The position numbers and the translations under genes are program-made. The notes beneath the pieces are model-generated. The model searched no databases and was not told the origin of the DNA. It saw only the letters and a program-made list of their open reading frames with translations. DNA of 64,000 nt from Candidatus Omnitrophota bacterium. Lineage in GTDB: Bacteria > Omnitrophota > Gorgyraeia > Zapsychrales > Fredricksoniimonadaceae. Position 1 is the first letter of the stretch; the number at the start of each line of letters is the position of its first letter. Shown here in pieces: positions 1,696 through 58,569 of this stretch. The stretch lies in NCBI GenBank assembly GCA_013285735.1, contig JABDGZ010000004.1, positions 999 through 64,998 on the forward strand, given 5' to 3'.

Positions 1696-3500
1696 TTGAG
1701 GACCTCCTGAATTTTTTTCATAATGATTCTTGGACGCAAGGGCCGGCCGGTTGCTTCGGCAATCAGCGGATGAATGTCCTTTAGAGTTTCTGATCTTAAT
1801 AATAAAGCTAATGGTGATGGCTTAAGCGCATCTCCATAAGCAACCTCCACCGTCATTACTTTTTTATATTTAGCAAAAATTTCCTTAAGCATCAATGGAA
1901 AAGGATACACCACGCGCAAATTCATGCCTGATGCCGGCACACCGTTCTTTTCGCACATATAAATAGCTTCTTCAATAGCCCCACGGCTTGAACCCCAACC
2001 TACGATCAAAACTTCATTCGAATCTTTACCGAACATTTCCGGAGTTGTCAGGGCACGGCGGACATGATGGATCTTTTCATTACGCACCGCGTGAGAACGC
2101 TGATGATTATCAGAGAAATAACTAATTTTGCCATTCTCATCCGTATTAAGTCCTGTGATACGGCGCATACCCCCCTCAGCACCTGGTGTGGTTTGCTGGG
2201 TTTTGACCATTTCAATAGGGCCAGTTAAACGCTTCATATGAAAACGATCAAAGACAAAATCTGGAATATCATCCACATTTTTCATCTGCACCAAAGGAAA
2301 CTTGGCTAACACTTTATAACTGTTAGCTGTCTGGAAATCACTTAAGATAAAAACCGGTACGCGCAATTTTTCCGTCAGGTAACGGGCTAAATGTGGCGCA
2401 TAAAAACAATCAATGATATTGGCAACACCGATGATGATCTTGGTATAATCGCCATGACTTCCACAAAGGGCTGCCAATACATCTGACTGTTCGGTTTTTG
2501 TCGGCATACCCGTCGATGGACCTGAACGCTGCACATCGATAACTATCAAAGGAATTTCAGCGGCTGTCGCAAAACCAATAAATTCTTGCTTCAAGGACAA
2601 GCCCGGACCTGAAGTTGCAGTCACTGCAGGCTGGCCAGCATAATAAGAACCAATCGCCGTACCGATAGCTGCAATCTCATCTTCAGCCTGATGTACAACC
2701 CCGCCATAAGCTGGAAAATTTTTAGCCAAGGTATGCATAATGGAAGACGCTGGTGTTATAGGATATCCTGAATACAATTTAATCCCGGCATCAATAATCC
2801 CCATGCTCATTGACGTATTACCGTCGATAAGTATCTGCTCACCATCTCGTTTATGGCTCTGCACCTCATAACGGAAGAATACCTTTTCCTTGGCCAATTG
2901 ATAACCGTTATGATAAAGGGTAACGTTTTTGGCCATGATATCTTCTTTGAGCTTTTTGCCGAAAGTTTTCACAATCTCTTTTTGGACCATTTCCTCGTCC
3001 ATATTATAGATATACGACAACATTCCTAAATAATGCAAATTTTGTCCCTTGCCACCTAATTCTTTGACAATGGTTTGGGATTCAGGATCAACATTAAAAG
3101 GAATAACACTAAGTCCCAATTTAGTACAGCGCTTGAGAACCATTTCATAAGAATCAGGGTTTGCTTCTTGATCCCCCATATCCAATAAAATCTTGGCATT
3201 GGCATTGAATTCATTATCATCAAGACGGCGATCCAAAACGATTTCATGTGCCGCTAAAATCAAATCCGTATCATTACCGATATTGGTGACGTCAAAATCC
3301 GCAAGACGGATAATAACACCTGAAAGGGCCGGACGGCTGCGGGCTGGCGGCGAAATTTCCGCAGGGATCATCGGCTCCACATAAACATACTGGCCCATGG
3401 CTACAAAAGCCCCCAGCAGGATATCCCCTGCTTTCTGGGCGCCTGTACCGGCATCCATGAGCAATTCAAATCTGGTTACTGGACGTTTTTCGAGTGACAT
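1692..3500 (-). CDS. korA: 2-oxoacid:ferredoxin oxidoreductase, alpha subunit with fused gamma domain (likely 2-oxoglutarate-specific KorA)
   Basis: 602 aa with a GYPITPAS motif. The two-subunit architecture of about 600 aa plus about 300 aa points to the KorAB type. Confidence 0.8.
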   Translation of the reverse strand: MSLEKRPVTRFELLMDAGTGAQKAGDILLGAFVAMGQYVYVEPMIPAEISPPARSRPALSGVIIRLADFDVTNIGNDTDLILAAHEIVLDRRLDDNEFNANAKILLDMGDQEANPDSYEMVLKRCTKLGLSVIPFNVDPESQTIVKELGGKGQNLHYLGMLSYIYNMDEEMVQKEIVKTFGKKLKEDIMAKNVTLYHNGYQLAKEKVFFRYEVQSHKRDGEQILIDGNTSMSMGIIDAGIKLYSGYPITPASSIMHTLAKNFPAYGGVVHQAEDEIAAIGTAIGSYYAGQPAVTATSGPGLSLKQEFIGFATAAEIPLIVIDVQRSGPSTGMPTKTEQSDVLAALCGSHGDYTKIIIGVANIIDCFYAPHLARYLTEKLRVPVFILSDFQTANSYKVLAKFPLVQMKNVDDIPDFVFDRFHMKRLTGPIEMVKTQQTTPGAEGGMRRITGLNTDENGKISYFSDNHQRSHAVRNEKIHHVRRALTTPEMFGKDSNEVLIVGWGSSRGAIEEAIYMCEKNGVPASGMNLRVVYPFPLMLKEIFAKYKKVMTVEVAYGDALKPSPLALLLRSETLKDIHPLIAEATGRPLRPRIIMKKIQEVLK

Positions 3501-3665
3501 AAATACCTCTTCCTTAATTTTACTTTTTTAAATGATACAAGATATGTGCCGTTTCCTTAAAATCCATATTAGAAAAACGGCCTATCTAAAGAAAATAATG
3601 GAGTTATATAAAAAATACCGTATTTTAATTACTATAGCACTGTGAATTGCTTTGGCAAGAAAAAA

Positions 3666-13964: not shown

Positions 13965-14324
13965 TTATCCTAATATTCCTTTTGCCTTTTCTTCACCTTC
14001 AATACGTTTAAAATCTTCATAATCCACAAAAACAATTTGGGGCTGCTCGTGGCTGATTTTAAGCATTTTGGGCATATGTTCTTTGATATTCTGAAAAGCG
14101 ATATATTTAAATTCTGTATTACATTCAGGACATTTTAAAGTGTCTATTTTTAAATCCATGTGTTTACAATTGGCACAGGTGCCTGATAAAGCACCATAGG
14201 TCATCAAATGAGTTTTAAGCTCATCAAGGTAAAATTTCTTATAAATTCGGAAATATCTATCCGGCATGGGGGATATTATAGCATCAATGGCAGGGTTGTC
14301 GACCCATAAAAAAACCGACATCAA
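13965..14324 (-). CDS. hypothetical Cys-rich small protein, zinc-ribbon-like
   Basis: 119 aa with CANCKH...CPECN paired-cysteine motifs. Confidence 0.4.
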   Translation of the reverse strand: MMSVFLWVDNPAIDAIISPMPDRYFRIYKKFYLDELKTHLMTYGALSGTCANCKHMDLKIDTLKCPECNTEFKYIAFQNIKEHMPKMLKISHEQPQIVFVDYEDFKRIEGEEKAKGILG

Positions 14325-14458: not shown

Positions 14459-17023
14459 TTACTTTATTATTCCTAACAGCGCCGGGACATTCTGAGTTGT
14501 TACAGGTTTAATACTGCGGATGATTGAGGTTAATCCATTCAAATTCATCATGGCACGGTCCTGATATTGAGCCGCAAGAGGCATGCCCATACCATCAACC
14601 TTGATATTCATCGTCAAATTTTCATCGCTCAAGTTGATACCACCAAGATCTGCCTCATGATGAGCCACAGCCGTCGCAGCCCTGTCCCTAGGGCTTGAAA
14701 AAGCATCTGTGGCAGCCAATATCAAATCATTTAAATCACGAATTCTTTTTTCAAGATCTCTAATCTTATACTTTGACTCCTTCCAAGCAATCGCCGTATT
14801 GACATCTTCTAATGCTTTTTCAACATTCTTTTGATCTTGACGAATATCACTAGCACTCCTTGCGCTACTAAAGAACGCTCCTAAATTCTTCACGAAATTC
14901 ATATTCTTTGATTCACTTTCAAGCGCCTCTTGTCTTCTTTTTAATGACATCCTCTCTAACTCTAAATTTTTCTCAATATCAAGATTTCTTATGTTTGCTT
15001 TATAGCCTGCTTTATAATTATTCTTGAACATTTGTCTTCCGGTAGCATCTATTTTTACCTCCATTCTTCTATTCAGTTCTTTCTGAGCATCTAAATCCCT
15101 TTCTGCATCTAGTAGACTTGCATTCAACATATCAACCGCCCCCGTTGTAGCCGCAGCTGATGGTGGGGTAGGAGTTGAAGTAGGCGCAGCTGGAGGCGCA
15201 TCGGGAATCTTAGCTAATAATTCATCCACTTCGCTCTGAAAATGAAGGATTGATATTCCAAGCTGATCAATCTCTTCGTGAGCTATAACCTCTAGTGTTT
15301 GTAAAACCCTTTCACTCGCCTCAATCTGCCTGTTGCTCTCGTCTAGCAGGGTTTCAATATTTGCTAAATTCTTTTTCATCTGCTTTCGAGTCTTTACTCT
15401 TATAAAAAGCCCGGTTAATTCATCAAAATTAAAAGGAAAACCTTGACCCCATAACGAGATACCCATCGCATCAACATAAGATCTTCTTTCGTCTTCATCC
15501 GCTTTTCTTTTAGCTTTCAAATAATCAATTCTTTTAGCTTGGTCCTTTATCCTCTCTAACCTATCGTTTACTTTATAAATACCCACCTGAAAATCACTGA
15601 TTCGACCGGTAAGATTTTGAAATTGGCCTTTCAAAATACCATCCATATCATGACCCTGCGCTTCTCCCAGCCTTTCCTTCGCAGCTTTAAATGTTTCTTG
15701 GGCCTTTAAAAATTTTATGTCTACAGACTCGCCCGTGCCTTCCCGAGCTTCTGCCACTGCCGCGACATCAACCTTACCTGCTGCAGCAACTGCCCTCCCG
15801 CCCAAAACCTGCGCATCGGTAAGGTGAGCAAAGGCCGTATGACTGGCAAAAACCGTCAATAAAACAGTCGCTAATGCAAATCTATGCATATTATTTCTCA
15901 TATTTCCCAAAAAAACAGCCACTCTTGCCTTGAAAGGACTTGTATTAATCTGCTCTTCAACCACCTGTTTCATCCCACCTGAAAAATATTTCCTTGGTAT
16001 TGTTTGGCCATCGGGAATGGCATCTTCTTTAATATAATTGAACACACCTTTCTTGTACGCCCTTAAATATTGCTTATATATTTTTTCCATCGCTTGCGGG
16101 TCGCTAAGCTTCTGCCCCGCGATCCGGGACCTATTGGCGAAAACTTGCCCTAAAAGACTTTGTTTAAGTGTCTTTTTAAACCATGTTGCCATGATCTCAG
16201 CGTTATACACTTGACGGACCGCAGCAAAACTCTTGCCCTCATTAACTTCCTTTTCAATAGCAGGAATAATAATTTCACGGACAATTGCTAAAGCCATCTG
16301 GGTCTTGGCATCTTTACTGGTATCCGGGATAGTTGAAATATTACCGAATTGTTCTTTATTTTTATCAATGGCCATATAATCCTGCTCAAGCATGACCTTC
16401 AGATGACTGTCTACCAAAAATGCTGTGTCACCTTTTTGATAAATATCCGCTTTATCAGCAACGATCCATACTTTGTTAAAAGTATTAACGCTGATATTGG
16501 TAGTGCCAAAACGGGCTTGGGCCTGTTGGTAAACCTCACTCCAAAACTTCTTGCCTAATCCGCTTTCCGGATAAATTAAAGATGCTGTGAATTGTTTGAG
16601 GATATAATCTTGAGCCAAAAGATCACGGCCCATTTCAGTTTGTCCAAAAACTTTAGGAATGATACGCTTGGACTCATAAGGAGAAAGATTCACCCACATA
16701 TCCGAATTCGGCATGGTAAGTGCAACCAAAAAATATTTAATAATTTTATTAAATTCTTCTTTTTCAACGCTATCCGACATAGGGGTTTCGCCACGATCCA
16801 TAATGAAGTCAAAATTAAACGGATCTTTGAGATTGATCTTAAGCCCTACCATCTGTGGTGGTTCAAAATGACGGGTAATATGAATCATCTGGCCCGGAGC
16901 TGGCATGACAATGCTCACCTGAGCATAACTGGGCTGGGCTGGAAGCAAACCAATGAATGCGACCAAAACGACAGAGACAATAAAACGAAATAATGAGGTC
17001 TTTTTAAATGTAATAGTACTCAT
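14459..17023 (-). CDS. large protein of unknown function, 854 aa. It has a signal peptide, a roughly 370-aa N-domain paralogous to the 49263..52474 protein, an internal signal-peptide-like hydrophobic segment, a coiled-coil-rich region and the shared C-terminal module.
   Basis: N-terminus MSTITFKKTSLFRFIVSVVLVAFIGLLPAQPSYAQ. The N-domain aligns with the other paralog (VNLSPYE..RIIP..FG.TEMGRDLLA.DY.LKQ.TASLIYPE; IPRKYFSGG). The C-terminus GGINLSDENLTMNIKV...IIRSIKPVTTQNVPALLGIIK matches the family module. Confidence 0.7.
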   Translation of the reverse strand: MSTITFKKTSLFRFIVSVVLVAFIGLLPAQPSYAQVSIVMPAPGQMIHITRHFEPPQMVGLKINLKDPFNFDFIMDRGETPMSDSVEKEEFNKIIKYFLVALTMPNSDMWVNLSPYESKRIIPKVFGQTEMGRDLLAQDYILKQFTASLIYPESGLGKKFWSEVYQQAQARFGTTNISVNTFNKVWIVADKADIYQKGDTAFLVDSHLKVMLEQDYMAIDKNKEQFGNISTIPDTSKDAKTQMALAIVREIIIPAIEKEVNEGKSFAAVRQVYNAEIMATWFKKTLKQSLLGQVFANRSRIAGQKLSDPQAMEKIYKQYLRAYKKGVFNYIKEDAIPDGQTIPRKYFSGGMKQVVEEQINTSPFKARVAVFLGNMRNNMHRFALATVLLTVFASHTAFAHLTDAQVLGGRAVAAAGKVDVAAVAEAREGTGESVDIKFLKAQETFKAAKERLGEAQGHDMDGILKGQFQNLTGRISDFQVGIYKVNDRLERIKDQAKRIDYLKAKRKADEDERRSYVDAMGISLWGQGFPFNFDELTGLFIRVKTRKQMKKNLANIETLLDESNRQIEASERVLQTLEVIAHEEIDQLGISILHFQSEVDELLAKIPDAPPAAPTSTPTPPSAAATTGAVDMLNASLLDAERDLDAQKELNRRMEVKIDATGRQMFKNNYKAGYKANIRNLDIEKNLELERMSLKRRQEALESESKNMNFVKNLGAFFSSARSASDIRQDQKNVEKALEDVNTAIAWKESKYKIRDLEKRIRDLNDLILAATDAFSSPRDRAATAVAHHEADLGGINLSDENLTMNIKVDGMGMPLAAQYQDRAMMNLNGLTSIIRSIKPVTTQNVPALLGIIK

Positions 17024-17117
17024 TTTTGCTCTTAATATTATTAATAAAGTATTTAGGCAAAGTATAACATCTATTGTATAAGAATGCCAAAAAGTTAATG
17101 TTGGGATGTCTGCGAAA

Positions 17118-46716: not shown

Positions 46717-47211
46717 ATGGATAAACTTCCTTTACATACAATCAGTGTTTTAGTGGCTAATAAACCAGGCGTGCTGGTGCGCATTGCATTAGTATTCGCC
46801 CGTCGCGGCTATAATATTAATTCGCTGGTGGTCTCACCCACCATCAATCCTAAATATTCACGCATGACCATCACCGCCAAAGGTGATCTGGAAACATTGG
46901 AACAGATCATTAAAAACGTCAATAAACTCATTGATGTCATTCATTGCGAAGAACATCCTGCTAACACGGTAGAAAAAGAATTAGCCCTGCTTAAAACCAA
47001 GGCTTCCCCTGCAGTCAAAGCGTTTGTCACCAAGAACGCCCATAAATTCCACGTCCGTATCGATGACGCCTCTGAAGGCTGCTATATCATCGAACAGACC
47101 GGCACCACCCTTGAACTCGACGAGTTCGAGAGCTTAATCAAAAAATACGGCGTCCTGGAAATGGTACGCACCGGAAAAGTGCTTATTACCCGCGGACGGG
47201 AAGAGACTTAA
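46717..47211 (+). CDS. ilvN: acetolactate synthase small (regulatory, ACT-domain) subunit
   Basis: 164 aa with an ACT-domain N-terminus (ISVLVANKPGVLVRIALVFARRGYNI). Confidence 0.85.
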   Translation: MDKLPLHTISVLVANKPGVLVRIALVFARRGYNINSLVVSPTINPKYSRMTITAKGDLETLEQIIKNVNKLIDVIHCEEHPANTVEKELALLKTKASPAVKAFVTKNAHKFHVRIDDASEGCYIIEQTGTTLELDEFESLIKKYGVLEMVRTGKVLITRGREET

Positions 47212-49211
47212 ACTGCAGTTGTTATCCCAAGAAATCCCTTAAGATCTGTCATCGGCTTTATACTAATAATCACCGGCACAAAGCCCGGGGCGTTTCGAAG
47301 TTGTGCAAGCATAGCGGGATCAATGTGGAATTTGATTTCGCCGCCGTTATTCTGCGTCTGCAAATGCATGTTGGCAGGGGTTAAGTCGATACCACCTGTG
47401 CTTGATTCCTCCATTTGATGCATAGGTATAGTAGTATGCATCGCTGTATCAAATTTTAACAACACAAACTTCTCATCCTCAATACTGTTATATTGATCCT
47501 CCCCAAACATAGCTGTAAATTTCCCCCAAGAATCCATATGTTGAGGATGAACTTTGACCTTTGTACCATTAACATAAACTGGAAGCTTTTTGACAGTCTT
47601 GTCATTGTCAAAATTAAAAGCTCCATCTAAATCCCGAGGTAAAACCACCCCCTCCAATCCTAAGTTTCCTGCTAACTCATTTAACCCTTTAAGAAGATTT
47701 GTCAACAATTCCTCTCCATCTAAAGAAGCAGATTGAATCGTATCTACTACTAATACTTTTTTACCATCCTTTGTCTCTCCTTTCATCAAACCAACATAGC
47801 CCTTTAATTCTTTACCCTTATAAACAAAATAATACATCGTATCTTCGTGCATGGCCCTGGTAAATGCATACCCCTTATCCCTATCCATATCAAAAGAACA
47901 ATCCATAATTCCAGCTCTCCCTCTGAATACACCCAAAAATCCTTGTGGAACCAGCGAATAACCCTCCCCACCTTTGACCTTGATCACTTTGACTTTAGCT
48001 ATCTCCTCATATACATCGGCTGATAATTGTTCGAAACTCTCCGTAAGACCTTTAATGCTCTCTACCTTTACCCCTATGGCAGCCATCGGAAGATGTCTTT
48101 TGTAATCTTCGTAAAAACTCTTAAACGCTTCAATTTTTTCATCTATCTGTTCTGACTGAAGCTGTCGCACCAACCCTTCGTCTAACAAACTTTCAGCAAT
48201 GATTAAATTTCTCATTAAGACCAAACATCTTTCTGAATGCTCTCCTATGTATTTATCATAGGTTATTTTAAAAACCGTATTGTAGAATTCTTTCTTTTTT
48301 GATAATAATTCCTCTCTCATTACCATTTCTGATGGAAATGGAATACTAAATCTGTCCTTATCCGTAATAATTCCTTCGCGAATAGCTTCGTTTCTTTTAA
48401 AATTCCAATAAATATTACTTAATTTTAATTTTTTATCCCCTTCAAAATTCTCTAATAACCAATTAAAGCTATCTACCTCTGCCTGAATGCCCAACAATTT
48501 ATAAAGATGAGCATCAAACACCTCCCCATCGACATCCTCGACGACTTTATTTTCATACTCTGTAGCGCTAACGTTTAATACTCCCAAGCCTTTGGTTTTA
48601 TTAAAAAGCATTTGCCAGTATCCGGGATTCTTTTTATCAAATTTAATTAACTCACCTATCCTTTCTTCAAATTCATCCCTTGTCAAAACTATCCCGCTAC
48701 TCCTGACAGCCACGTATGCAAACCATAATTTCTTGGGATCATTATAATCAAAACCATTCTCTATTACTTGATGTGCTTCTCTTTTTATTTGTTCAACAAA
48801 TCTAACAGGATCACTACTATCCCAAAAAGACTCAAAAATTTCTTCTTCATATGGAAAATTTTCTTTAATCCATAAAGAATATCTCATAAAACCCTCTGGC
48901 GAGAAATTCTTTTCCTCGATCATTCTGGGATATACAAAACTCAAAACATTAAGAATTGCATGCCTTGCATCTGTACCCCACTCTGAATTTAAACGCTTTT
49001 CTAGATCTTCTGATGTTAAATATCCCTGCTCGACCATTTTTAAATACAGGGGACCCAAAGCATCAACGATTTCATCTCTAACGGAACTATACTCTCTAGT
49101 ATCAAGGAGTTTTTCTAAGACTTCTATAGGCACCCTCTCTCCTCGCTCTGCCCTCCATAGGTATAACTTGCTAAGAGCTTTGATGATTGCTTTCTGTGAA
49201 TCAGAATACAT
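47208..49211 (-). CDS. large protein of unknown function, 667 aa. It has no signal peptide and carries the shared C-terminal module.
   Basis: C-terminus STGGIDLTPANMHLQTQNNGGEIKFHIDPAMLAQLRNAPGFVPVIISIKPMTDLKGFLGITTAV. The coding sequence is AT-rich. Confidence 0.7.
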   Translation of the reverse strand: MYSDSQKAIIKALSKLYLWRAERGERVPIEVLEKLLDTREYSSVRDEIVDALGPLYLKMVEQGYLTSEDLEKRLNSEWGTDARHAILNVLSFVYPRMIEEKNFSPEGFMRYSLWIKENFPYEEEIFESFWDSSDPVRFVEQIKREAHQVIENGFDYNDPKKLWFAYVAVRSSGIVLTRDEFEERIGELIKFDKKNPGYWQMLFNKTKGLGVLNVSATEYENKVVEDVDGEVFDAHLYKLLGIQAEVDSFNWLLENFEGDKKLKLSNIYWNFKRNEAIREGIITDKDRFSIPFPSEMVMREELLSKKKEFYNTVFKITYDKYIGEHSERCLVLMRNLIIAESLLDEGLVRQLQSEQIDEKIEAFKSFYEDYKRHLPMAAIGVKVESIKGLTESFEQLSADVYEEIAKVKVIKVKGGEGYSLVPQGFLGVFRGRAGIMDCSFDMDRDKGYAFTRAMHEDTMYYFVYKGKELKGYVGLMKGETKDGKKVLVVDTIQSASLDGEELLTNLLKGLNELAGNLGLEGVVLPRDLDGAFNFDNDKTVKKLPVYVNGTKVKVHPQHMDSWGKFTAMFGEDQYNSIEDEKFVLLKFDTAMHTTIPMHQMEESSTGGIDLTPANMHLQTQNNGGEIKFHIDPAMLAQLRNAPGFVPVIISIKPMTDLKGFLGITTAV

Positions 49212-49262
49212 GTATCCGTCAGATAAATACAGGTATAGGTAATCATTGGAATGATATAAAAT

Positions 49263-52200
49263 TTAATTATTGTGGAACTGTTGAGGAGATTTAGATGTCA
49301 ATCCCAAAAATATCCTAATGTTTCTCATTGGCTGAATATTAATAATAACTGGTATAAAACCATGGGCATTTTGTAATTGTTTAAGCAAGACAAGATTAAG
49401 ATGAAATTTAATTTCACCATTACTATATTGAATTTGAAGATTCATATTCTCAGGAGTTAAGTCAATACCACCATAATTTGGATTGTTTAATTGTGCAACA
49501 TAATTATTACCAACGTTTTGAGGTCGCTGTGACCATAAACTTAATTCTCTAATCATAGGTGGGGTTAAAGAATAATCCCACCTTCTGTCGTTCACACGAT
49601 CACGAACATCCACGCTTAAATATGTGAACTGCTCAACCTTAACTTGATTTTCATCAAGCAAATGGATAGTCTGTCTCAAAGTTGATTCTGCCCATTGGGG
49701 GGTAGCCCCATAAGGACCGCTGGATGGAATTCCAGCTTCTGGAAACACCCAAGGCTTACTAACATAGGTTTTTGATACGCGCTTAATATAATCAAATGTT
49801 TCATCTTTGTTTAAAGGAGTTAAATATAAATCAAAACCAAATGCATCAAAACTATTTAAATTCGGGCGATAGTTTTCTCCGTACTTATTCATCTGAGTGT
49901 AAACAATTCTAAAGTTTAAACCATTTTCTTGGCCCAAACGTCTTAAATATGCAGATGTATCCTCAAATCTTTTCTTATAGGCATTATATGCCACTTCAGT
50001 CCATCTCTTTCCATTAGGAGTTCCATCCTCAGTGCCATAAGACATATTATCTGGCTCCGATGCTACTCGGATATAAATAGTGTCATTTTTATCAAAACCT
50101 GCGTCTTTAAATTTTTGCACCATAAAATCAATTTCTTTTTGATCAATCGTTTCCAAGCCTATAAATGGTGCGACTCCCATACCTCTTAAACGGTTCAATT
50201 CATTAACATTCCAAACAGCAAAATTTGAAGCCCCGGTGCTTGAAGGAACATCATGATTCCAATAATACATAAGAGCTTGATGAGAAAAAACTCCTTTTTG
50301 CCTTCCATATGCAATGGTCTTAAAATATTGATCAACTGTAAAATTAGGAAGATAATCGGAGTACGCCCCAACCGGTTTATCAATCTTATTTTCTGGTTGA
50401 GGAGCAAAAGATACTGTTTCGGTACCTTCTTTACTATCAACTTGAAAAAACGAAACGCTCGGTGGTTTATTTTCAAATGTTGGAGCTACCTTATTATGTG
50501 CATATGCTTGAGGCATCATGAAAAGTGCACTAACCCCCAATGTTAAAGCTATGGCGGTTGCCAATGTTCTTTTAGGAGTGAATAATCTTTGTACCAAGGA
50601 TTGTACGAAAGGAACAGATGGGTTTCTTCTAGAAGGTTTTGAGGGGACCTTAATGGGAGACGCGGTACTCGTTTTAACAGCCATTGTAGGTTCAACCGCT
50701 ACAACCGGACTACTTGGTACTTGTATATTACTGCTAAGTGCAAAGATATTTTGAACTTCCTGAATTGTTTCCAACCTACCCGTATATGCCGCTGATATCA
50801 ATCTAATCTTTATTCCTAACGGAAGGCCTCCGGTCTTTTCATCCTTTTTTAAATCATCATCACTAATCCCAAGGCTATCCTGAATACCCTTGATCGTTTG
50901 ATCAAACATTTCTTCCTTCTGAGAAACCATTACTCCATTCCTGTTAACTTTTTTTGCTAAAGATACGTACAATGCTGCTGTTAATATTCTTTGTTTCTGT
51001 ACATAATCTAAATTTTGAATATTAATACCAAATCTATTTTCTACATCGCTGATAAACCTTCCCCAAGCTGCATATGTCGTCTCACCCGATATTTTGTCAA
51101 CAACAGTTAAAAGTTGTCTTTTAGCTGTAGGCCTAAGATTTTCAAAATCGATCCCATATTTAGTAGAAAAATCTCTTAGAATTTTTCCCATAACTCTTAT
51201 ACGCTCATCAGTCACCCTATCATTATGAACTTTTGAAGCAATGATGTTACCAACTTTTGCTTTTAATTTCCTATTCTTATTCCCTTTCAAAATTTCTGCT
51301 AAAGAATTTTCAACATCAGCTCTTTCAGTCTGCTCTGTGATCAACATTGCCCTATCTGGTGAAAGCATCGCCCCATCAGCACCATGCGAATCTGAAGTAA
51401 CTTCAAAATTAGGAATCTCTAAATTAGAATCCCCTTTTTGAAATAATGCCAAAAACGCTCCTCCTGAGAAATATTTCCTTGGTATAGTCTCTTGCGTTAC
51501 AGGATCAACATCTTCTTTGATGTAGTTATACACACCCTTCTTAAAAGCCTTAAGATATCGCTGATAAATTTCTTCTTTCTCCTGTGGGTTATCAATATTG
51601 ACTCCAGCGACCTTGTTCTTATCCGCGTATACCTGTGATAATATGCTTTCTTTGATTTTTTTCTTATACCATGTAGCTAAAATGAGCGAACTATATACCT
51701 GACGTAGTTGGGCGAAATTCTTATCTTCATTAACTTCTTTTTTTAATTCAGGAATAATTATCTCGCGTACGATCTGGCTGCCTAATTGGTTAGTATCTTT
51801 TGCTTGTGTCTGCCGAGATTGGATTCCTTCATGTTTGGTCAATGACAGATAATCTTGCTCTAACATTACTTTTAGTTTTGATTCGACTACATAAGCCGTG
51901 CCTGCTTTTGTATTCTCATAAACTACCGCTTTTTCAGGTACTATCCAAACCTTGTTAAAGGTATTCACCGGAACATTGGTTGTCCCAAATTTTTTAGCGG
52001 CTTCTTCGTAGATTCGCTTCCAGAATTTCTTTCCAATCGTATCTTCAGGGTAAATCAAGCTGGCTGTTATTTGCTTGAGCATATAATCTTCGGCCAACAG
52101 GTCTCGCCCCATCTCAGTAAGCCCAAAGCTATTAGGAATAATACGATCCTTTTCATACGGGGAAAGATTGACCCAAAGGTCTTTCTCAGGGATGGTCAAA

Positions 52201-52474
52201 GAGGCAAGGAAATATTTAATCAGTTTGCTAGATTCATCTTTAAGCTGGCCATTGCTTAATTCACCATCTCCTTTATCTAGAATAAAGTCAAATCTAAACG
52301 GGTTATCAGGATGAACCTTGATTCCTTTAAGAATCGGTGGATCAAATGGAGGACTTAAATGAACCATGACCCCAGGCGTAGGCAAATAATAATCTTGGGC
52401 TTGGGCTAAGGGCATGGGGCCAAAGGAATTAATCAAGAAGGCTACAAGAATAAGGATTAATAGGGATTTTCTCA
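49263..52474 (-). CDS. large protein of unknown function, about 1070 aa. It has a signal peptide, an N-domain paralogous to the 854-aa protein, an internal signal-peptide-like segment, a possible TIM-barrel hydrolase-like region and the shared C-terminal module.
   Basis: I chose the start at Met 52474 (MRKSLLILILVAFLINSFGPMPLAQAQ, a Sec signal). The ORF track starts 13 codons upstream. The C-terminus is YGGIDLTPENMNLQIQYSNGEIKFHLNLVLLKQLQNAHGFIPVIINIQPMRNIRIFLGL. Confidence 0.7.
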
Positions 52475-52667
52475 TCTTAATATAAATATACCATGCATTT
52501 GATAGTAAAAACAAGGGTTGGTGGGAAACTGGCTGGGAATGATACCATAGATCGTTACCCCCCTGCTTGTGAGAAAGTTGAGAAGATCTTATGTGTGAGC
52601 GAAAAAGTCTTTAAGAAGATTCAAAGGGATTTTGAGAGATTTGGTATCAAGGTGGGAAACTGGCCTT

Positions 52668-54224
52668 TTAGGCTTTTTGCCATCTGTCAGGAAGAAGTTC
52701 CTCTAGTCGTGAGATTGGATGGGACTGAATTCTTTGTAAAACGTCTTTCAAATAAGTCCACGTATTGATCTTATTTTTGCGGCAAGTGGCGGTAAAGGTC
52801 ATGAGTATCGCAGCTGTATGACCACCTTTTTCACTTCCAACAAAAAGCCAATTTTTGCGTCCTAAGGCTATTGGACGTATGGCATTTTCAGCAAGATTAT
52901 TGTCTATCGGTAATCGGCCATCTTGAAGATAAGCATTAAGTTCTTTCCAAAGGCCAAGCGTGTAATTAATGGCCAGACGCATGGGTGATTGTGGTAAATG
53001 TCCGGGAAGATGTTCTTCAAGTTTATTTTTAATTTTATCTAATAACACCCTAGATTCTTTTAACCGGAGAGCATGCCTATCTTTTGGGCTTAAGAATTTA
53101 GCATCAGATTCAACATGATACAATTTGGCGATTAGCACCAGTACTTCAGTTGCTGCGCGTGGTGATGTTTTTTCAGCGTCTAGAAAATACCGCCTTGCAT
53201 GCGCCCAACAGGCTAAATGGGTTACGATGTGAGCGGTGGTTTCCTCTGTGGTAGGAGGTTTTCCTAATCCGCTATAGCCAGCATAGGCATCGGACATAAA
53301 AAATCCTTTGTAATCTTTAAAGAATTCCAATGGACCTTCTTTACAGCGGTTTATTGTAAAATTGTACAGTGCATATTTGAAGTTTTCAGCTCCAACTGTT
53401 GCCCACATCCTTGCTGTCTGTATCCCTTTGTTCGGGCCATCTCGCATGTCCACCGGGGTGTCATCATTGCCTACAATGCCGTGTTCAAAGATTTTATTGC
53501 GCTTTAGATCATATAAAGGGGTAAGTGCTAAGGCGCATCCATACATCCAATCAGCCATGGTTTGGCGGCTGATATTTACACCTTCTCGTTTAAGTTTCTC
53601 TTCAATCCTGTACAAAGGGGTATGATATTCAAACTTCTCCGTGATCACATAGGCTAAAAGACCAGCATCTGCTTCACAGCGTTCAATAGGGCCTTCCGGT
53701 GTGGGATGCTGTTTAACACCACAGCCATCACAGCGACTATCCCCACAAGCATACTTGGGTCTCACATAGCTATTGACCAACAGGGATGAGGGGTGGTAAT
53801 CAAGGCGTTCGGTTATATCATCGCCGATATGAACAAGCTTCTTGCCGCAGCCACAGACTTTTTTCTCTTCATGGACATCTAAAACATGTTCAACACGCTT
53901 AAGATGCTCTGGTAATTTCTGACGGCCATGATGATTACGCACATGTGCTGTTACCGCCGTTGTTGTCTCAAGCAGGGGATCTTCTGCCTTTGGGGCAGTA
54001 TTCTTGTCTACTTCTAGGATAAGTTCTTGCATAAGCAGTTGATTGGGGTCAAGTTTTTCACTGCTTCGGCCATACAGACGTTTTATCAAGCCTTCTAATT
54101 GGTGCTGCTGTTTAAGGATTGTATTTTGGAGGGTTTCTACAAGTGCTTCGAGTTGTTGGTTTTGTTCTTTTAGGTATGTATTTTCTTCAGCAGGAGTTGA
54201 GAAAGTAAGCGTCGTCGATACCAT
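52668..54224 (-). CDS. tnpC: IS66 family transposase TnpC
   Basis: N-terminal leucine zipper, then a zinc-finger region CGCGKKLVHIGDDITERLDYHPSSLLVNSYVRPKYAC, and a DDE core. Confidence 0.85.
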   Translation of the reverse strand: MVSTTLTFSTPAEENTYLKEQNQQLEALVETLQNTILKQQHQLEGLIKRLYGRSSEKLDPNQLLMQELILEVDKNTAPKAEDPLLETTTAVTAHVRNHHGRQKLPEHLKRVEHVLDVHEEKKVCGCGKKLVHIGDDITERLDYHPSSLLVNSYVRPKYACGDSRCDGCGVKQHPTPEGPIERCEADAGLLAYVITEKFEYHTPLYRIEEKLKREGVNISRQTMADWMYGCALALTPLYDLKRNKIFEHGIVGNDDTPVDMRDGPNKGIQTARMWATVGAENFKYALYNFTINRCKEGPLEFFKDYKGFFMSDAYAGYSGLGKPPTTEETTAHIVTHLACWAHARRYFLDAEKTSPRAATEVLVLIAKLYHVESDAKFLSPKDRHALRLKESRVLLDKIKNKLEEHLPGHLPQSPMRLAINYTLGLWKELNAYLQDGRLPIDNNLAENAIRPIALGRKNWLFVGSEKGGHTAAILMTFTATCRKNKINTWTYLKDVLQRIQSHPISRLEELLPDRWQKA

Positions 54225-54277
54225 TAGATTTATATTAGCACTTATCGTCGGTGAATCAAGATATTTATTAGATATTT

Positions 54278-54637
54278 TTACATCATTTTAACATTATCAC
54301 GTCGGTATCGTGGTTGACGTTTGATCACTCTTGCTTCAATTCCTTCAAGTAAATTTGCCCATGATGCACGGTCAAGACAGCTACCATCATCAGAAGGGAT
54401 CACAAACCTACCTGCTTCAAGCCGTTTATACCACAACGCATAACCATCGTTATCCCAATAGAGAACTTTTAACTTGGTTTTATTTACATTTAGAAAAACA
54501 AACCAATCGCCATTTAAGGGGTCTTCATGCATTTCATCGGTCACCATCAATGACAAACGATCAAAACTTCTGCGCAAATCACAGCTGCCGCGATATAAAA
54601 ATATCCTGACATTGTTCAAATTAATTCCTGAGATCAT
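54278..54637 (-). CDS. tnpB: IS66 Orf2 accessory protein TnpB
   Basis: 119 aa with [23 protein letters not shown], the characteristic IS66 Orf2. Confidence 0.85.
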
Positions 54638-54936
54638 ATGGCTTTGACCAACCCAAGGATCTTTTGGAAAATCAATTCATCAAAACCATTGAGCTCGATC
54701 TTGTACCCATTGGGGGTTTCAATATGAAGATCCTTCAGGGTGGGGAATGAAGGTTTGATTAACCGAAGGAATCCTGGCTTGGGAGATTCATTACTGATTA
54801 ATCTTTTACGCCATGCATAAAAATTGCTTATGTTGATATTTTTATTCTTGCAGTATTGGGATATTGATAAACCGCTGGTAGGTTGGGCAAAAAGTATTTT
54901 TTGCCATTGCTTCTTTGATCGAAAAATTTTCTTCAT
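54634..54936 (-). CDS. tnpA: IS66 Orf1 (TnpA-like helix-turn-helix protein)
   Basis: 100 aa with a 4-bp overlap with orf2 and an AGGAGG RBS. Confidence 0.7.
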
Positions 54937-55026
54937 CGACGTTCCTCCTATGAATTGTTATAATAATGCAATATTTTACCGCACTATTAAAATGATTCAT
55001 AGATGGATTAGTCGGACGGATACATT

Positions 55027-58000
55027 TTGAGTGGAAATGAGAATTCAGAAAATAAATCTTCACGTTTACAATTCGTTGACATAGTGAATCCGACCCTTGT
55101 TACCCAAATATATCATGAGGCAAATAAAATAATTGGAAATGCCGCTAAATGGACTATTGCAAAACACAAGTTTTCTGAGTTCGATCCAAGAATATTAGAA
55201 GAATTAATGAAGCCAGAAAATGATATTTTGGAGAATATTTCTTCAACAGAGGTCCGTTTAAAGGCTAATTTAGACTGGAATAAACTTATTAGGATACAAG
55301 AAATTGCGGGAAGTGATTTTGAAAAAATTAGGGACATTTTGCAACAGTCCGAAGTGAGAACTGAATATAAATTTGAAATTAAAGATTTTGCTCCCAAAAC
55401 TCCTGATTATTCATCTTTTGAGGGTAAGACAATTGATAGTTTGAAAGAATTTGATGAATGGGCCCAAGTTTACGCACTTGCTTTTTTACCTGCAGCTTAT
55501 GGTGACCCGCAACTCATTGATAAATCGAGACAGGAAATTTTATCTGTAATTGATAAGGACCCAAGAAAGAGGGATCTTTGGTCAATGGTAAGAAATGGCT
55601 TCAATCAAATGACCTCTATTACTACTAAAGACACTGAGCGGAAATCACATTTGAAAACACATCTTGGCACTATTTTAGACGATAGAAAGGGTATTGAAGA
55701 AAAGCTTGAAGAATTGAATAATACTCGCACATTGCCGGAATTGGATGAAATGATAGCAGCAAATAATGTAATGTCATCGGTAGGGAATGGGGTGGTGACA
55801 AGCGGGGAAATAGGAAAAATTGCAGCGGGATTATTACCGGGATTGGCGTCTGGTTTAGGGGCTATTGATCAACCAATAGAATCTTTCGTTAATGCGGCGA
55901 TGAATGCAAGGGATCAGGCGATGACTGTGGTCGATCAAAGGGATCGATTGGTTCGAAATTTGAGAATCTTGTTAGAAAGGCCGGATGTTCAAATAGGATT
56001 AGGTAATCATGAGGCTGTTCGTTACATGTTAAATGGCGTAGCAAGTGCCGCAACAATAAATCCTGGTCCCGCTGCTGTTATTTCATTAGAAAGTTATATA
56101 AAAAAGATAGAAGATTTACTTATTCCAGTGAAACAAAAAATTGAGCTACTAAAGAAGCTTCACAACGAAAATCCTGAGGTTTTCAATGAAGTTGATCAAA
56201 TGGTGATGCTTGAGAATGAAGGATATTCTCCAAAAAAGAGATCGATTGTAAATAAATTAGATAAGGATGAAAATAGTTTTTTGTTTTCTAAGGTTACTAA
56301 GATTCTTGGAGCACGCATATATTATGTGGATCCAACTGTTAAAATACTTATGGCGCATTATGTTCAGGAAGAAGGTGCTAATAAAAGAATAACTTATCAA
56401 GAGCCAACTGCGCTTTTGTTTTCTACATCATCATCCGTCGCCAAGATACAGGCCCAAGCAGCGACACCGGCAGAATGGATTCAAAGGAATCATATGTATG
56501 TTATTGATGGTAGGGAGAAGTTTACAGATCTTGTGAGGTTTACAGAATATTTACTCAAGGCTTATCGAGCCAATCCACATATTCCAGTTGTAGGCTATTT
56601 AGATAAATGGTGTGTGCTTCCAACTCCTCTCGACTTAGTAAAGGAGCGTTTGATCGGTTCCAATGATGTTGTCCGTGCGCTTTCTGATGAAGCGGTAAGT
56701 CGTTCTAATAATATGCCGGTATCAAGTGACGGCATTTTCGATTTGTATTATTTTGCGTCTAAGCTTCTAGATGAAAGGCAAATAAGAGCAACACCTTTCG
56801 TTACGGGTGAATTTAAAGGCGTTACATTAACTGCAATTCGTGAATCGACAATAGAAAGCATTATCACTGAATATAATAAGGTGGTGGCCCGTCCGACAGA
56901 ACCCTATGCTCCTCAAGGCAGCATTGATGGTCAAGCAGCGACACCAAGAGAATGGATGGAAAGACATAATATTCAAATTTTAGAAGGCAGATCATTAAAC
57001 GGTATTAAAAGTGTTGAAGAATTGGCTATGATTTTAGTTCAGCAATTTCAAACCAGACAAAGGCCTGTTGCGGCTGAATGGGAAGGGACTTGGTTAATGA
57101 CAGATCCTTATTTATTCCTGGAGGCGGCTAATCTTGTTGACGTTGGTCAAAGAATGGTTTATGAATGGAGAGAGCGTAAAGCTCGTGCCACTGTTTTGGA
57201 TAGAGGCATTCCAGATTTGAATAATTTTGCGGCTACGTTATTGGATGAAAGGCAAATACGGGGCGATGTTGTGGTTAAAGGCGAATTTGGAGGGATTACT
57301 TTAGTAGCCAATGGACGCACAACGTTACGCAATATTATTCGTCAATATAATGTGGCGGTAAAAAGCATTCCTTCTGTTGGCCCTTTTGATAGTAGTCGCG
57401 AGGTAAAAAGCTTGGATGCATTGGTTAAACGGCATAATATATTATGGATTAACGGGAATGAAATTTTTAGAAAAAGAGGACGGCTGGGGAAGGCTGCTGA
57501 TATCATAGATTTCGCTTTGGATTTAATTGATTTTCAACGTCTAAATCCAATCCAGCCGCATGGCGGCACATGGAATGGGGTGAGCCTAATTTTAGATCCG
57601 TTTTACTTAATGGGGGTTAGCACAGTCGTTGCTAATAAAATTAAAACTCAATATGATCGTCGTTTTAGTAATGAGGAAGAGCCTAATAGACCTATGGAAA
57701 GCTTGTTAGATTTTGCCATCAGACTTTTAGAGGAGAGGGTAATAAGAAGAGATTCTTTCCCAAATGCAAAGCAATTTGAAGCTATCTATAAAGATCCGTC
57801 CGACCAATCTGATGATAAGGGCACCAGTTTAATAGTAACTCCACAATCAACAGTAAAAAGTATTATAGGTCAGTATAATAGAAAGAACCCGCTAAAGCCT
57901 TATACCCCTAACCATAACGAATTAAGAGTTTTTTATGAAGATAAAATGGGAACTGGCGGGATGGGTTTTATTAGGTTTTTACTTGAGGAATACCGATGGG

Positions 58001-58569
58001 ACCCAAGCAGGCCGGTTATTGGCCTAACGCATGGTAAATGGGTCACCCCAGAGCCTTCTGACTTGGTTGTCGATCCTTATTCCGCTGTTTCTAGAATTTC
58101 TAAGGAATTGGAAGATCGGATAAATAATAATCCTTTAGCAGATGACGGTATTGAAGACGTGAGGGATTATGCAGAGGAACTTCTTCATGAAAGAGATATG
58201 AGACAAACACAACAATCTGTTGATAAAGTTACATTTAAAGGCATACAATTAATAGTATCTCCACAATCAACAATAAATAGTATTGTCGAAGATTACAATC
58301 AACAAACTGCTCAATCTCCATCGGCGACAGATGATCAGGCGATGAAGGTCACTGAGAAAAGGTCTAATGGGCCAGGTGGTATCGATTTAAGCCCTGCTAA
58401 TAATGTTTTACAAACCCGAAATGCTGGCATAGGGATCAAATTTCACTTAGATGCTGCCCAGCTTGCCCAATGGCAAAAAGCCCCAGGTGTGATGATTGAG
58501 GATATTACTATCCAGCCGCTTAAAAGTCTTTCTGTCTTTCTTGGTCTACCTGACAGCCAACCTGTTTAA
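55027..58569 (+). CDS. large protein of unknown function, about 1180 aa, with four tandem repeat modules of about 170 aa and the shared C-terminal module. The 5' end is possibly truncated by the IS66 insertion.
   Basis: It starts at a TTG immediately after an in-frame stop, about 90 bp from the IS66 orf1 start, with no SD sequence. The repeats carry LL(D/E)ER.IR...GEF.G(I/V)TL......I..YN. The C-terminus is GPGGIDLSPANNVLQTRNAGIGIKFHLDAAQLAQWQKAPGVMIEDITIQPLKSLSVFLGL. Confidence 0.65.
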   Translation: MSGNENSENKSSRLQFVDIVNPTLVTQIYHEANKIIGNAAKWTIAKHKFSEFDPRILEELMKPENDILENISSTEVRLKANLDWNKLIRIQEIAGSDFEKIRDILQQSEVRTEYKFEIKDFAPKTPDYSSFEGKTIDSLKEFDEWAQVYALAFLPAAYGDPQLIDKSRQEILSVIDKDPRKRDLWSMVRNGFNQMTSITTKDTERKSHLKTHLGTILDDRKGIEEKLEELNNTRTLPELDEMIAANNVMSSVGNGVVTSGEIGKIAAGLLPGLASGLGAIDQPIESFVNAAMNARDQAMTVVDQRDRLVRNLRILLERPDVQIGLGNHEAVRYMLNGVASAATINPGPAAVISLESYIKKIEDLLIPVKQKIELLKKLHNENPEVFNEVDQMVMLENEGYSPKKRSIVNKLDKDENSFLFSKVTKILGARIYYVDPTVKILMAHYVQEEGANKRITYQEPTALLFSTSSSVAKIQAQAATPAEWIQRNHMYVIDGREKFTDLVRFTEYLLKAYRANPHIPVVGYLDKWCVLPTPLDLVKERLIGSNDVVRALSDEAVSRSNNMPVSSDGIFDLYYFASKLLDERQIRATPFVTGEFKGVTLTAIRESTIESIITEYNKVVARPTEPYAPQGSIDGQAATPREWMERHNIQILEGRSLNGIKSVEELAMILVQQFQTRQRPVAAEWEGTWLMTDPYLFLEAANLVDVGQRMVYEWRERKARATVLDRGIPDLNNFAATLLDERQIRGDVVVKGEFGGITLVANGRTTLRNIIRQYNVAVKSIPSVGPFDSSREVKSLDALVKRHNILWINGNEIFRKRGRLGKAADIIDFALDLIDFQRLNPIQPHGGTWNGVSLILDPFYLMGVSTVVANKIKTQYDRRFSNEEEPNRPMESLLDFAIRLLEERVIRRDSFPNAKQFEAIYKDPSDQSDDKGTSLIVTPQSTVKSIIGQYNRKNPLKPYTPNHNELRVFYEDKMGTGGMGFIRFLLEEYRWDPSRPVIGLTHGKWVTPEPSDLVVDPYSAVSRISKELEDRINNNPLADDGIEDVRDYAEELLHERDMRQTQQSVDKVTFKGIQLIVSPQSTINSIVEDYNQQTAQSPSATDDQAMKVTEKRSNGPGGIDLSPANNVLQTRNAGIGIKFHLDAAQLAQWQKAPGVMIEDITIQPLKSLSVFLGLPDSQPV

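Follow-up and report, generated by a model that had tools for sequence, protein, structure and literature searches.

The 854-aa protein encoded at 14459..17023 (W854) is a member of a very large, unannotated superfamily specific to Omnitrophota, in which a conserved N-terminal domain (N-domain) and a short C-terminal module (C-module) form a two-ended frame. The type of N-domain and the type of C-module stay paired through inheritance, whereas the intervening cargo is replaced. The explanation we favor, a lineage-specific export or surface-display system, stands about an even chance of being right. Throughout, "the window" is the whole stretch of 64,000 nucleotides that we analyzed. Its gene census revealed an ordinary housekeeping context, and a six-frame scan detected exactly four C-modules and two N-domains.

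Two paralogs share both ends

W854 and its surroundings were divided as follows.

14459..17023, minus strand: W854 gene (P0001), 854-aa family member (ATG open reading frame)
17061..17090, minus strand: promoter-like site, TTGGCA-18-TATACT with extended TG (consensus match only, 10/12)
16922..17023, minus strand: Sec-type signal peptide, aa 1-34 (read from the sequence)
15974..16921, minus strand: conserved N-domain, aa 35-350, with an invariant YFSGG at its end (alignment, AF2, HMM)
15827..15901, minus strand: internal signal-peptide-like hydrophobic segment, aa 375-399, MRNNMHR-FALATVLLTVFASHTAFA/HL (hydrophobicity)
14663..15826, minus strand: variable cargo, aa 400-787, coiled-coil-like, with a Pro/Ala/Thr linker near aa 605-625 (heptad score)
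14462..14662, minus strand: C-module, aa 788-854, with GGINL at aa 794-798 (alignment, HMM)

The promoter-like site lies ~40 nt 5' of the ATG. The signal peptide has an n-region of KK..R, an h-region of FIVSVVLVAFIGLL (KD maximum 2.68), and a site between SYA and Q; the AF2 model has a helix over residues 10-26 and then a linker of low confidence at 30-36. A homolog search returned a database entry 100% identical to W854, and its closest relative (P0004) showed no synteny with it.

The other family members in the window were a paralog of W854 (W1070) and two proteins carrying the C-module only.

49263..52475, minus strand: W1070 gene, 1070-aa paralog of W854, starting MRKSL (open reading frame)
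51459..52397, minus strand: W1070 N-domain, aa 27-339 (BLASTP; 558 bits against the family HMM)
50499..50573, minus strand: W1070 internal signal-peptide-like segment, aa 635-659, KR-TLATAIALTLGVSALFMMPQAYA/HN (KD 2.06)
49506..50498, minus strand: W1070 cargo, aa 660-990, weakly GH113 / clan GH-A-like (Pfam scan)
49266..49490, minus strand: W1070 C-module, subtype GEIKFH...GFIPVIINIQPM (alignment, HMM)
47208..49211, minus strand: W667, 667-aa member, C-module only, without signal peptide (open reading frame, HMM)
47211..47414, minus strand: W667 C-module (HMM)
55027..58569, plus strand: 1180-aa member, C-module only, without signal peptide, with internal repeats (open reading frame, HMM)
58357..58566, plus strand: C-module of the 1180-aa member (HMM)

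An earlier, sequence-only reading had proposed that W854 and W1070 are paralogous at the N-terminus, and the pairwise alignment bore this out. BLASTP aligned W854 aa 8-350 with W1070 aa 2-339 at 53% identity over 349 aa and 73% positives (E=2e-119), far above the compositional level, and every shared stretch quoted in that reading fell inside the alignment. The domain itself is shorter than the ~370 aa suggested, spanning ~315 aa after a signal peptide of 34 aa in W854 and 26 aa in W1070 (aa 1-26, site between AQA and Q). The W1070 locus runs to 52475; the coordinate 52474 of that reading stops one base early and yields no translation.

Beyond the N-domain, the two proteins were expected to be completely different until a common C-module, and the only further alignment between them was indeed in the C-terminal 75-82 aa (26% identity, E=0.006). 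Against an HMM of 31 C-modules, each <40% identical to that of W854 and thus without its near relatives, W854 scored 50.6 bits (E=3.2e-15), which confirms the C-terminal match as genuine. Its C-module had aptly been called distant, because it escapes an HMM made from just the three island members. The coiled-coil-rich nature proposed for the W854 cargo was backed by a crude heptad score in four stretches (aa 419-510, 547-607, 622-661, and 714-778). BLAST against 259 family proteins found no relative for this cargo, Pfam gave no match, and searches with it returned compositional matches to coiled-coil proteins only. The "hydrolase-like" label given to the W1070 cargo found weak support in a sub-threshold match to GH113 (E=0.0096, 15.8 bits, below the Pfam cutoff of 27), and no PDB relative of this cargo was found. 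We note that W1070 and W667 share a reading frame, interrupted by one TAA stop, which we judged to be chance; the stop-to-stop frame of W667 extends only 17 codons 5' of its start.

Matched ends and replaced cargo across Omnitrophota

The dispersed, modular family that had been read from the window reaches well past it and proved to be a phylum-wide superfamily rather than a local one. In public data, we found at least 3,781 N-domain proteins, every named one from Omnitrophota, and 6,113 protein clusters with a C-module, always at the extreme C-terminus among the matches listed. At least ~80% of the best 120 homologs carried both ends, with YFSGG at about aa 340, GGIDL ~60 aa from the end, and unrelated cargo between. 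N-domain proteins nearly always carry the C-module, which is the more general of the two elements: about three-quarters of its carriers are without an N-domain, and a Sec signal peptide plus N-domain occurs in a quarter to a third. Most C-module carriers, and the C-module-only proteins among them, have no signal peptide.

Cargo was unrelated between members and included a coiled coil, a GH-like region, PFK, PGK, TIM, a PLP-enzyme, an M3-peptidase, and GAPDH, and the central-metabolism enzymes among these look intact. Members of 4.8-5.0 kaa also exist, combining the N-domain, several enzymes, and the C-module; one of 4,828 aa carries five central-metabolism enzymes. Scans of all four window members against Pfam, NCBIfam, PHROGs, and PADLOC returned no family, PDB sequence and profile searches gave coiled-coil noise only, and literature searches for the motif or a family description found nothing. 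A phage family was ruled out, with only 3 loci in 2.9 million viral contigs. Clustering of neighbors at 80 loci revealed no conserved non-family partner, the largest neighbor "families" being antisense open reading frames within the conserved N-domain coding region.

N-types and C-types co-vary although the cargo is unrelated, and cargo of very different length has been swapped into matched frames. Such swapping, together with the tandem arrays and IS66 transposase in the AT-rich island, would suit a polymorphic-cassette system in which arms-race selection drives the diversification of a surface or effector protein, with the conserved ends serving mainly as recombination handles and the C-only neighbors as orphan cassettes comparable to Rhs/CDI orphan modules. 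However, conservation is seen in the protein sequences and spans many diverged subtypes (amino acid identity among the island C-modules is ~60% by our own reading of the alignment, made with no tool), the C-only genes are complete open reading frames with their own starts and no 5' homology to N-domain genes, and the function of the modules would be left unexplained. We consider this explanation very unlikely.

Sequence and predicted structure of the modules

The N-domain has 39 invariant alignment columns and a signature of WVNLSPxE, TxxGxxxLxxDYxLK, NKxW, and terminal YFSGG that both W854 (572 bits against the family HMM) and W1070 carry. Structure prediction, as the earlier reading had advised, gave a confident AF2 model for W854 (pLDDT 82, pTM 0.78) with a predicted alpha+beta fold of long helices and two hairpins, for which no solved-structure relative was found. 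Model confidence was low in the WVNLSPxE loop and at the YFSGG end.

The C-module spans ~55 aa (GGI[D/N]L...IKRDGxGxPLP...GLxPxIxxIxP), with GGI invariant and several further positions near-invariant. We recognized it by GGI[D/N][L/F/M] plus a profile match of ~50 aa, a few to ~100 residues from the C-terminus. This holds for W854, whose subtype reads DGxGMPL...NLNGLTSIIRSIKP. The alignment is too degenerate for a DNA pattern scan. Predicted alone, the module showed no structure and no beta structure, and the modeling indicates that it cannot fold on its own; it also lacks a hydrophobic helix (KD maximum ~1.1-1.2). Double-glycine (C39 peptidase) cleavage at the GG was set aside, as conservation lies after the GG and not before. 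A "D.AM" motif was weakly enriched 5' of GGIDL and after YFSGG.

These properties bear on head-to-tail docking, in which the C-module, as an extended peptide, would bind or complete the N-domain of the same or another family protein. Proteins with both ends would then polymerize or capture C-only proteins, building surface or periplasmic assemblies with mixed cargo, which could coexist with export. A C-module without an autonomous fold, present on almost every N-domain protein and co-varying with the N-type despite unrelated cargo, speaks for docking; C-only genes also lie directly beside N-domain genes (e.g., W1070/W667), and the low-confidence loop and YFSGG end resemble binding sites, which are often modeled poorly. 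Yet C-only proteins have no signal peptide and N-domain proteins are Sec-exported, so that the partners would start in different compartments, and the co-variation is explained equally well if whole frames were duplicated and their cargo was later replaced. Overall, we regard docking as unlikely.

Cysteine depletion and topology

Family proteins are slightly acidic and 13-20-fold depleted in cysteine, C-module-only proteins included; the products of neighboring genes have 1.2-1.3% Cys. P0233, which combines TIM with a C-module, has no Cys. Segments comparable to the hydrophobic aa 375-399 of W854 were present in roughly 25 of ~32 close relatives (counted by eye), and in about one-third of N-domain proteins, strong hydrophobic segments follow the N-domain. 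The charge distributions of the internal signal-peptide-like segments conflict with a simple topology in which everything lies outside.

Such segments could act as stop-transfer helices in a cytoplasmic or membrane-tethered scaffold, with the N-domain as a periplasmic anchor and the cargo and C-module in the cytoplasm. The C-module would then assemble or localize enzymes into a membrane-tethered metabolon in very small cells, which fits both the intact-looking central-metabolism cargo and the missing signal peptides of C-only proteins. By contrast, no transmembrane segment follows the signal peptide in over half of N-domain proteins, among them those with PFK, PGK, PLP-enzyme, and M3-peptidase cargo, and near-total loss of cysteine from cargo and C-only proteins would be unexpected for cytoplasmic enzymes. 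A scaffold of this kind seems quite improbable to us.

Comparison with known systems

The family resembles several known systems without joining any of them. Like the CTD cargo of the Bacteroidota type IX secretion system (T9SS), it has many paralogs per genome, variable cargo, and a conserved C-terminal module that would serve as an address tag rather than a cargo fold. However, the C-module is only ~55 aa and predicted without a beta-sandwich, the Sec signal peptide on which T9SS depends is missing from most of its carriers, the family occurs in Omnitrophota only, and there was no match to the NCBIfam CTD models (type A/B) or Pfam. RTX-type type I secretion, with its uncleaved C-terminal signal of ~50-60 aa, shares a terminal-only element, mostly signal-peptide-less carriers, and cysteine-poor, slightly acidic proteins. 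Its signals are not conserved in sequence, in contrast to the invariant GGI, and a quarter to a third of C-module carriers have a Sec signal and N-domain, W854 and W1070 among them. We detected no HemolysinCabind match or RTX repeats, and no ABC/MFP partner or transporter in the window census or the flanks of family loci.

Conserved C-terminal domains also mark unrelated type IV secretion effectors that have no signal peptides and act in contact-dependent antagonism, namely XVIPCD in Xanthomonas X-Tfes and BID in Bartonella Beps; XVIPCD alone is partly disordered. The C-module is shorter, some of its carriers are Sec-dependent, no homology to XVIPCD or BID was detected, and our analysis tied no T4SS or coupling protein to it. 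At the other end, the N-domain recalls the TPS domain of TpsA proteins, a conserved ~300-aa domain right after the signal peptide of large, variable exoproteins, but it is predicted to be alpha+beta and not a beta-helix, with no Pfam match and no TpsB-like neighbor in the loci examined. Exosortase, sortase, and rhombosortase signals (PEP-CTERM, LPXTG, GlyGly-CTERM) combine a short motif with a C-terminal transmembrane helix and a basic tail; the C-module had no NCBIfam match and is without a hydrophobic helix. Two further candidates were rejected: ClyA-type alpha pore-forming toxins (NheA, MakE, SmhA), for which a long helical bundle with a beta-tongue and a significant structural match would be required, and Rhs/CDI-type polymorphic toxins, which pair a conserved N-terminal bulk and a variable C-terminal tip with an adjacent immunity gene, as here the C-terminal tip is conserved and the middle varies.

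"Archaeovorins" are giant multi-enzyme proteins of Omnitrophota, with N-terminal regions reported to be without identifiable domains (bioRxiv 10.1101/2023.11.21.568195, 10.64898/2026.06.07.730766). Neither these two preprints nor the Seymour 2023 paper describes our modules. Archaeovorins share with the family the phylum, a signal peptide and/or scattered transmembrane helices, and cargo (PF08241, PF02518, PF00583, PF00072, and sugar and central-metabolism enzymes). W854 and W1070 differ in having ~1 kaa and a single cargo each, and W854, with 854 aa and one cargo, was not assigned to this class of ≥10 kaa proteins with many enzyme domains, HEAT repeats, and many transmembrane helices.

Possible export or display and its implications

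The frame runs from a cleavable Sec signal peptide through the ~315-aa N-domain and interchangeable cargo to the ~55-aa C-module, which is also present on thousands of proteins without an N-domain or signal peptide. Under the export or display explanation, the N-domain, as a Sec-exported module, may handle or anchor a subset of the cargo, and the C-module may be an extended recognition tag for sorting or docking, read by putative lineage-specific machinery. The cargo of W854 would be a long coiled-coil stalk, that of W1070 a glycosidase-like domain, and elsewhere glycolytic and other enzymes, with the family grading into the multi-enzyme large proteins of the phylum. Several observations count against this explanation. 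No export machinery was found and no non-family neighbor gene was conserved in the 80 loci; no clean precedent exists for a single tag on both Sec-dependent and signal-peptide-less proteins; classic cytoplasmic enzymes (PFK, PGK, TIM, GAPDH) make up much of the cargo; the charges of the signal-like segments oppose a simple outside topology; the depletion of cysteine is indirect evidence; and co-inheritance alone could account for the N-C co-variation.

Bacteria of the phylum Omnitrophota are widespread and uncultured, most are ultra-small, and they are suspected of predation or parasitism; to our knowledge, their large and giant multi-enzyme proteins still lack an explanation. The N-domain and C-module HMMs provide two searchable handles on thousands of proteins with one architecture and almost no cysteine, and the N-domain adds a confidently modeled fold without a solved-structure relative. 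Should the C-module be a sorting signal, it would define the exported proteome (secretome/effectome) of a whole phylum, and the matching machinery would become a tractable problem for comparative genomics. More speculatively, and in our judgment improbably, the C-module may be the address tag of a new Omnitrophota-specific delivery route for hundreds of cysteine-free proteins, possibly into prey or host. Among the proteins delivered would be glycolytic and glyoxylate-cycle enzymes that are catalytically intact, with the N-domain as an envelope-side handling or anchoring component and the Archaeovorin giants as concatenated frames. If true, an energy parasite shipping metabolic enzymes into its host would represent a new strategy.

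A modular family in the window

The ORF at 14459..17023(-) codes for a protein of 854 aa (W854), and its 1070-aa paralogue (W1070, start MRKSL) is encoded at 49263..52475(-). The sequence-only reading had identified this partner gene correctly, although its end coordinate of 52474 was one base short. As it had proposed, the two proteins are paralogous at the N-terminus: BLASTP aligned W854 aa 8-350 with W1070 aa 2-339 at 53% identity and 73% positives (E=2e-119), and every conserved stretch quoted earlier lies inside this alignment. Beyond it the proteins are indeed dissimilar, the sole other alignment covering the last 75-82 residues (26% identity, E=0.006). The short C-terminal module (C-module) of W854 is genuine, scoring 50.6 bits (E=3e-15) against a profile built from 31 C-modules, none of which reaches 40% identity with it. 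Because this broad profile finds the module and a profile from the three copies in the island (W667, W1070, and W1180) misses it, the description of W854 as a distant fourth member was accurate. In total, the window holds exactly four C-modules and two N-domains, the latter being the conserved head domain after the signal peptide. W1070 follows the same plan as W854.

Features of the family members in the window
W854, aa 1-34: canonical Sec signal peptide (basic n-region, FIVSVVLVAFIGLL, SYA followed by Q)
W854, aa 35-350: conserved N-domain, its last residues the invariant YFSGG
W854, aa 375-399 (15827..15901): second signal-peptide-like segment, MRNNMHR-FALATVLLTVFASHTAFA followed by HL
W854, aa 400-787: cargo, heptad-type coiled-coil segments and a Pro/Ala/Thr linker
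W854, aa 788-854 (14462..14662): C-module
W1070, aa 1-26: signal peptide, with the N-domain running to aa 339
W1070, after the N-domain: 290-aa unique region
W1070, aa 635-659 (50499..50573): internal signal-like segment
W1070, next: 330-aa cargo, GH113 match below threshold only (E=0.0096)
W1070, end (49266..49490): C-module
W667, 47211..47414: C-module
W1180, 58357..58566: C-module
52668..54224(-): IS66-family transposase gene between the island family genes

Internal signal-peptide-like segments with a basic n-region, hydrophobic core, and AxA site follow the N-domain in W854, W1070, the homologue P0010, and other homologues; that of P0010 is Tat-like (QTRRELLARVGLFAGAGAAAVAFSNNAEA).

W854 has a promoter-like site of its own and lies among ordinary housekeeping genes. 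The other three members are found together 30 kb away, where the DNA is richer in AT and includes the IS66 transposase (GC of 0.35-0.39 across 47208..58569 vs. 0.42 across the window). W667 begins 52 nt after W1070. The two genes share a reading frame, with 17 sense codons separating the W1070 stop (TAA, 49263-49265) from the W667 start (49212..49265); we judged this spacing to be chance (about 0.15), and no signs of readthrough were seen. W1180, a C-only protein of 1180 aa encoded at 55027..58569(+), contains internal repeats (aa 472-979 vs. aa 631-1119, 25% identity, E=2e-31), with several ~170-aa units and recurring ATP.EW...R motifs. Directly downstream of W854 is a 119-aa ORF (13965..14324(-)) with a zinc-ribbon-like CxxC...CxxC motif (CANCKHMDLKIDTLKCPEC). 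A long antisense ORF sits inside the N-domain coding region (16592..16993(+)), and eight related loci (L010 at 3073..3648(-) and seven others) also have an antisense ORF there; we rejected these ORFs as genes and read them as a by-product of strong coding-strand conservation.

Spread across the phylum

At least 3,781 proteins matched W854 significantly in a database search, and all those that bear a name were Candidatus Omnitrophica or Omnitrophota. Matches spanned ~40% of the query, equal to the N-domain, in proteins of 480 to 1,470 aa. At least 584 loci were found in species-representative genomes, with several to a genome. Every one belongs to an Omnitrophota MAG; some of these MAGs bear the wrong label "uncultured Planctomycetales." Among the 120 best matches, ~80% or more have YFSGG at about aa 340 together with GGIDL ~60 aa before the end. 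Loosely conserved [DN]x[AS]M sequences (such as DKAM, DSAM, and NAAM) are frequent 5-10 residues before GGIDL and within ~60 residues downstream of YFSGG; their enrichment is weak, and they may mark a linker or boundary.

The C-module profile, run against 1.84 billion cluster representatives, matched 6,113 proteins at E<=1e-3 and 3,374 at E<=1e-10, always at the extreme C-terminus of carriers of 72 to 4,969 aa. The N-domain was present in 35 of 139 newly found carriers, including most above ~770 aa. The other 104 were C-only; 89 of these start with Met, and ~95% of the 89 have no N-terminal hydrophobic signal. The stop-to-stop frames of W667 and W1180, the two C-only proteins of the window, leave no space for a hidden signal peptide. 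Family genes cluster: of 80 loci, 10 have a C-only gene immediately upstream in the same orientation. Very short ORFs of 72-130 aa (P0121, P0128, P0174, P0211, and others) have hardly anything beyond a start Met and a brief linker in front of an entire C-module, and may be free-standing tags or gene fragments.

Together, these results support the earlier observation and its interpretation and extend both considerably: the modular family is real, phylum-wide, and without annotation.

Variable cargo between co-varying ends

Cargo, the variable part between the two ends, was unrelated in 7,248 of 7,260 protein pairs. Where Pfam recognised it, the assignments were well supported, all above curated cutoffs: full-length PFK (E=4e-43), the N-terminal half of PGK, a PLP-dependent Cys/Met enzyme (1.5e-50), peptidase M3 (5e-100), response-regulator receiver domain, LMW phosphatase, GNAT, and aldo-keto reductase. 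Among 62 C-only proteins, 59 had no Pfam domain and one was a complete TIM with catalytic motifs. P0186 (4,828 aa), with both N-domain and C-module, carries isocitrate lyase, TIM, class II aldolase, malate synthase, and GAPDH. Multi-enzyme large proteins of Omnitrophota have like kinds of Pfam domains, signal peptides, and scattered transmembrane helices (bioRxiv 10.1101/2023.11.21.568195, 10.64898/2026.06.07.730766). Since the cargo domains are of the same kinds and some members are large enzyme strings, the family grades into these proteins. P0186 and P0259 (4969 aa, also with both ends, and with UDP-glucose dehydrogenase and GHMP kinase domains) tie it to the giant Omnitrophota proteins.

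Across 121 proteins with unrelated cargo, N-domain identity was correlated with C-module identity (Pearson 0.56, Mantel p=0.001). The closest N-domains to W854 (76-86% identity) came with its own C-subtype, and those closest to W1070 (81-88%) with the "IKFH" C-subtype, whether the cargo was PGK, GNAT, or other. Both types of frame, or N-domain and C-module pair, are present in the window's genome. The homologues P0004 (W854-type) and P0071 (W1070-type), each with a longest listed contig of 33,024 bp, may share a contig in another sample, although a follow-up check did not bear this out. Plainly described, this is a two-ended modular superfamily. An explanation by docking between C-module and N-domain, itself compatible with export, seems somewhat unlikely, and cassette exchange with the ends acting mainly as recombination handles seems very unlikely.

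A possible export or display frame

Cysteine made up 0.09% of residues in N-domain proteins (n=155) and 0.05% in C-only proteins (n=64), 81% of which had none at all, compared to 1.2-1.34% in the rest of the window's ORFs and in those flanking the genes at the 80 loci (p about 4e-19 and 5e-22). Values for the window members were 0 in W854 and W1070, 0.3% in W667, and 0.08% in W1180. Only His was also noticeably low (~2-fold), with other residues near normal. S-layer and extracellular proteins typically show such depletion, as do substrates that are exported in an unfolded state (T1SS, T3SS, and autotransporters).

We consider it about an even prospect that the family is an export or display frame, in which the C-module would serve as a recognition tag at the very end of the protein, and the N-domain, exported through Sec, would handle or anchor part of the cargo. 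This reading is favored by the strictly terminal position of the C-module and its lack of an autonomous fold, by the very large and diverse carrier set with many members per genome, and by family-wide cysteine loss that includes carriers without a signal peptide. It is weakened because no export machinery was found and no neighbour gene was conserved among 80 loci, because one tag occurs on both Sec-dependent and signal-peptide-less proteins, and because the internal signal-like segments (one Tat-like, in P0010) have flanking charges that misfit a simple topology. Typical cytoplasmic enzymes also form much of the cargo, which weakens it further. A cytoplasmic, membrane-tethered scaffold appears quite unlikely.

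Comparison with known systems

Pfam, NCBIfam, PHROGs, and PADLOC gave no match for W854, W1070, W667, or W1180, and PDB sequence and profile searches gave no relative. Modelled alone, the C-module reached a pTM of 0.27 with essentially no secondary structure; it therefore looks more like an extended peptide tag than like a domain. Neither module was found described in the literature, including two preprints on Omnitrophota giant proteins (bioRxiv 10.1101/2023.11.21.568195, 10.64898/2026.06.07.730766), one of which finds the N-terminal regions of such proteins generally without identifiable domains.

In logic, the family is like T9SS CTD cargo, T1SS substrates, T4SS effectors with conserved C-terminal domains (XVIPCD, BID), and, through its conserved post-signal N-domain, TpsA proteins. 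Yet it matches none of the curated models, and the folds predicted for it are different. The C-module has no transmembrane helix with basic tail, the family proteins have no RTX repeats, and most C-module carriers lack a Sec signal. Because it fails the testable defining features of each known system, we read the family as a candidate further case of proteins that are modular, exported, and addressed by a tag at the end; an entirely novel route that delivers metabolic enzymes is less likely.
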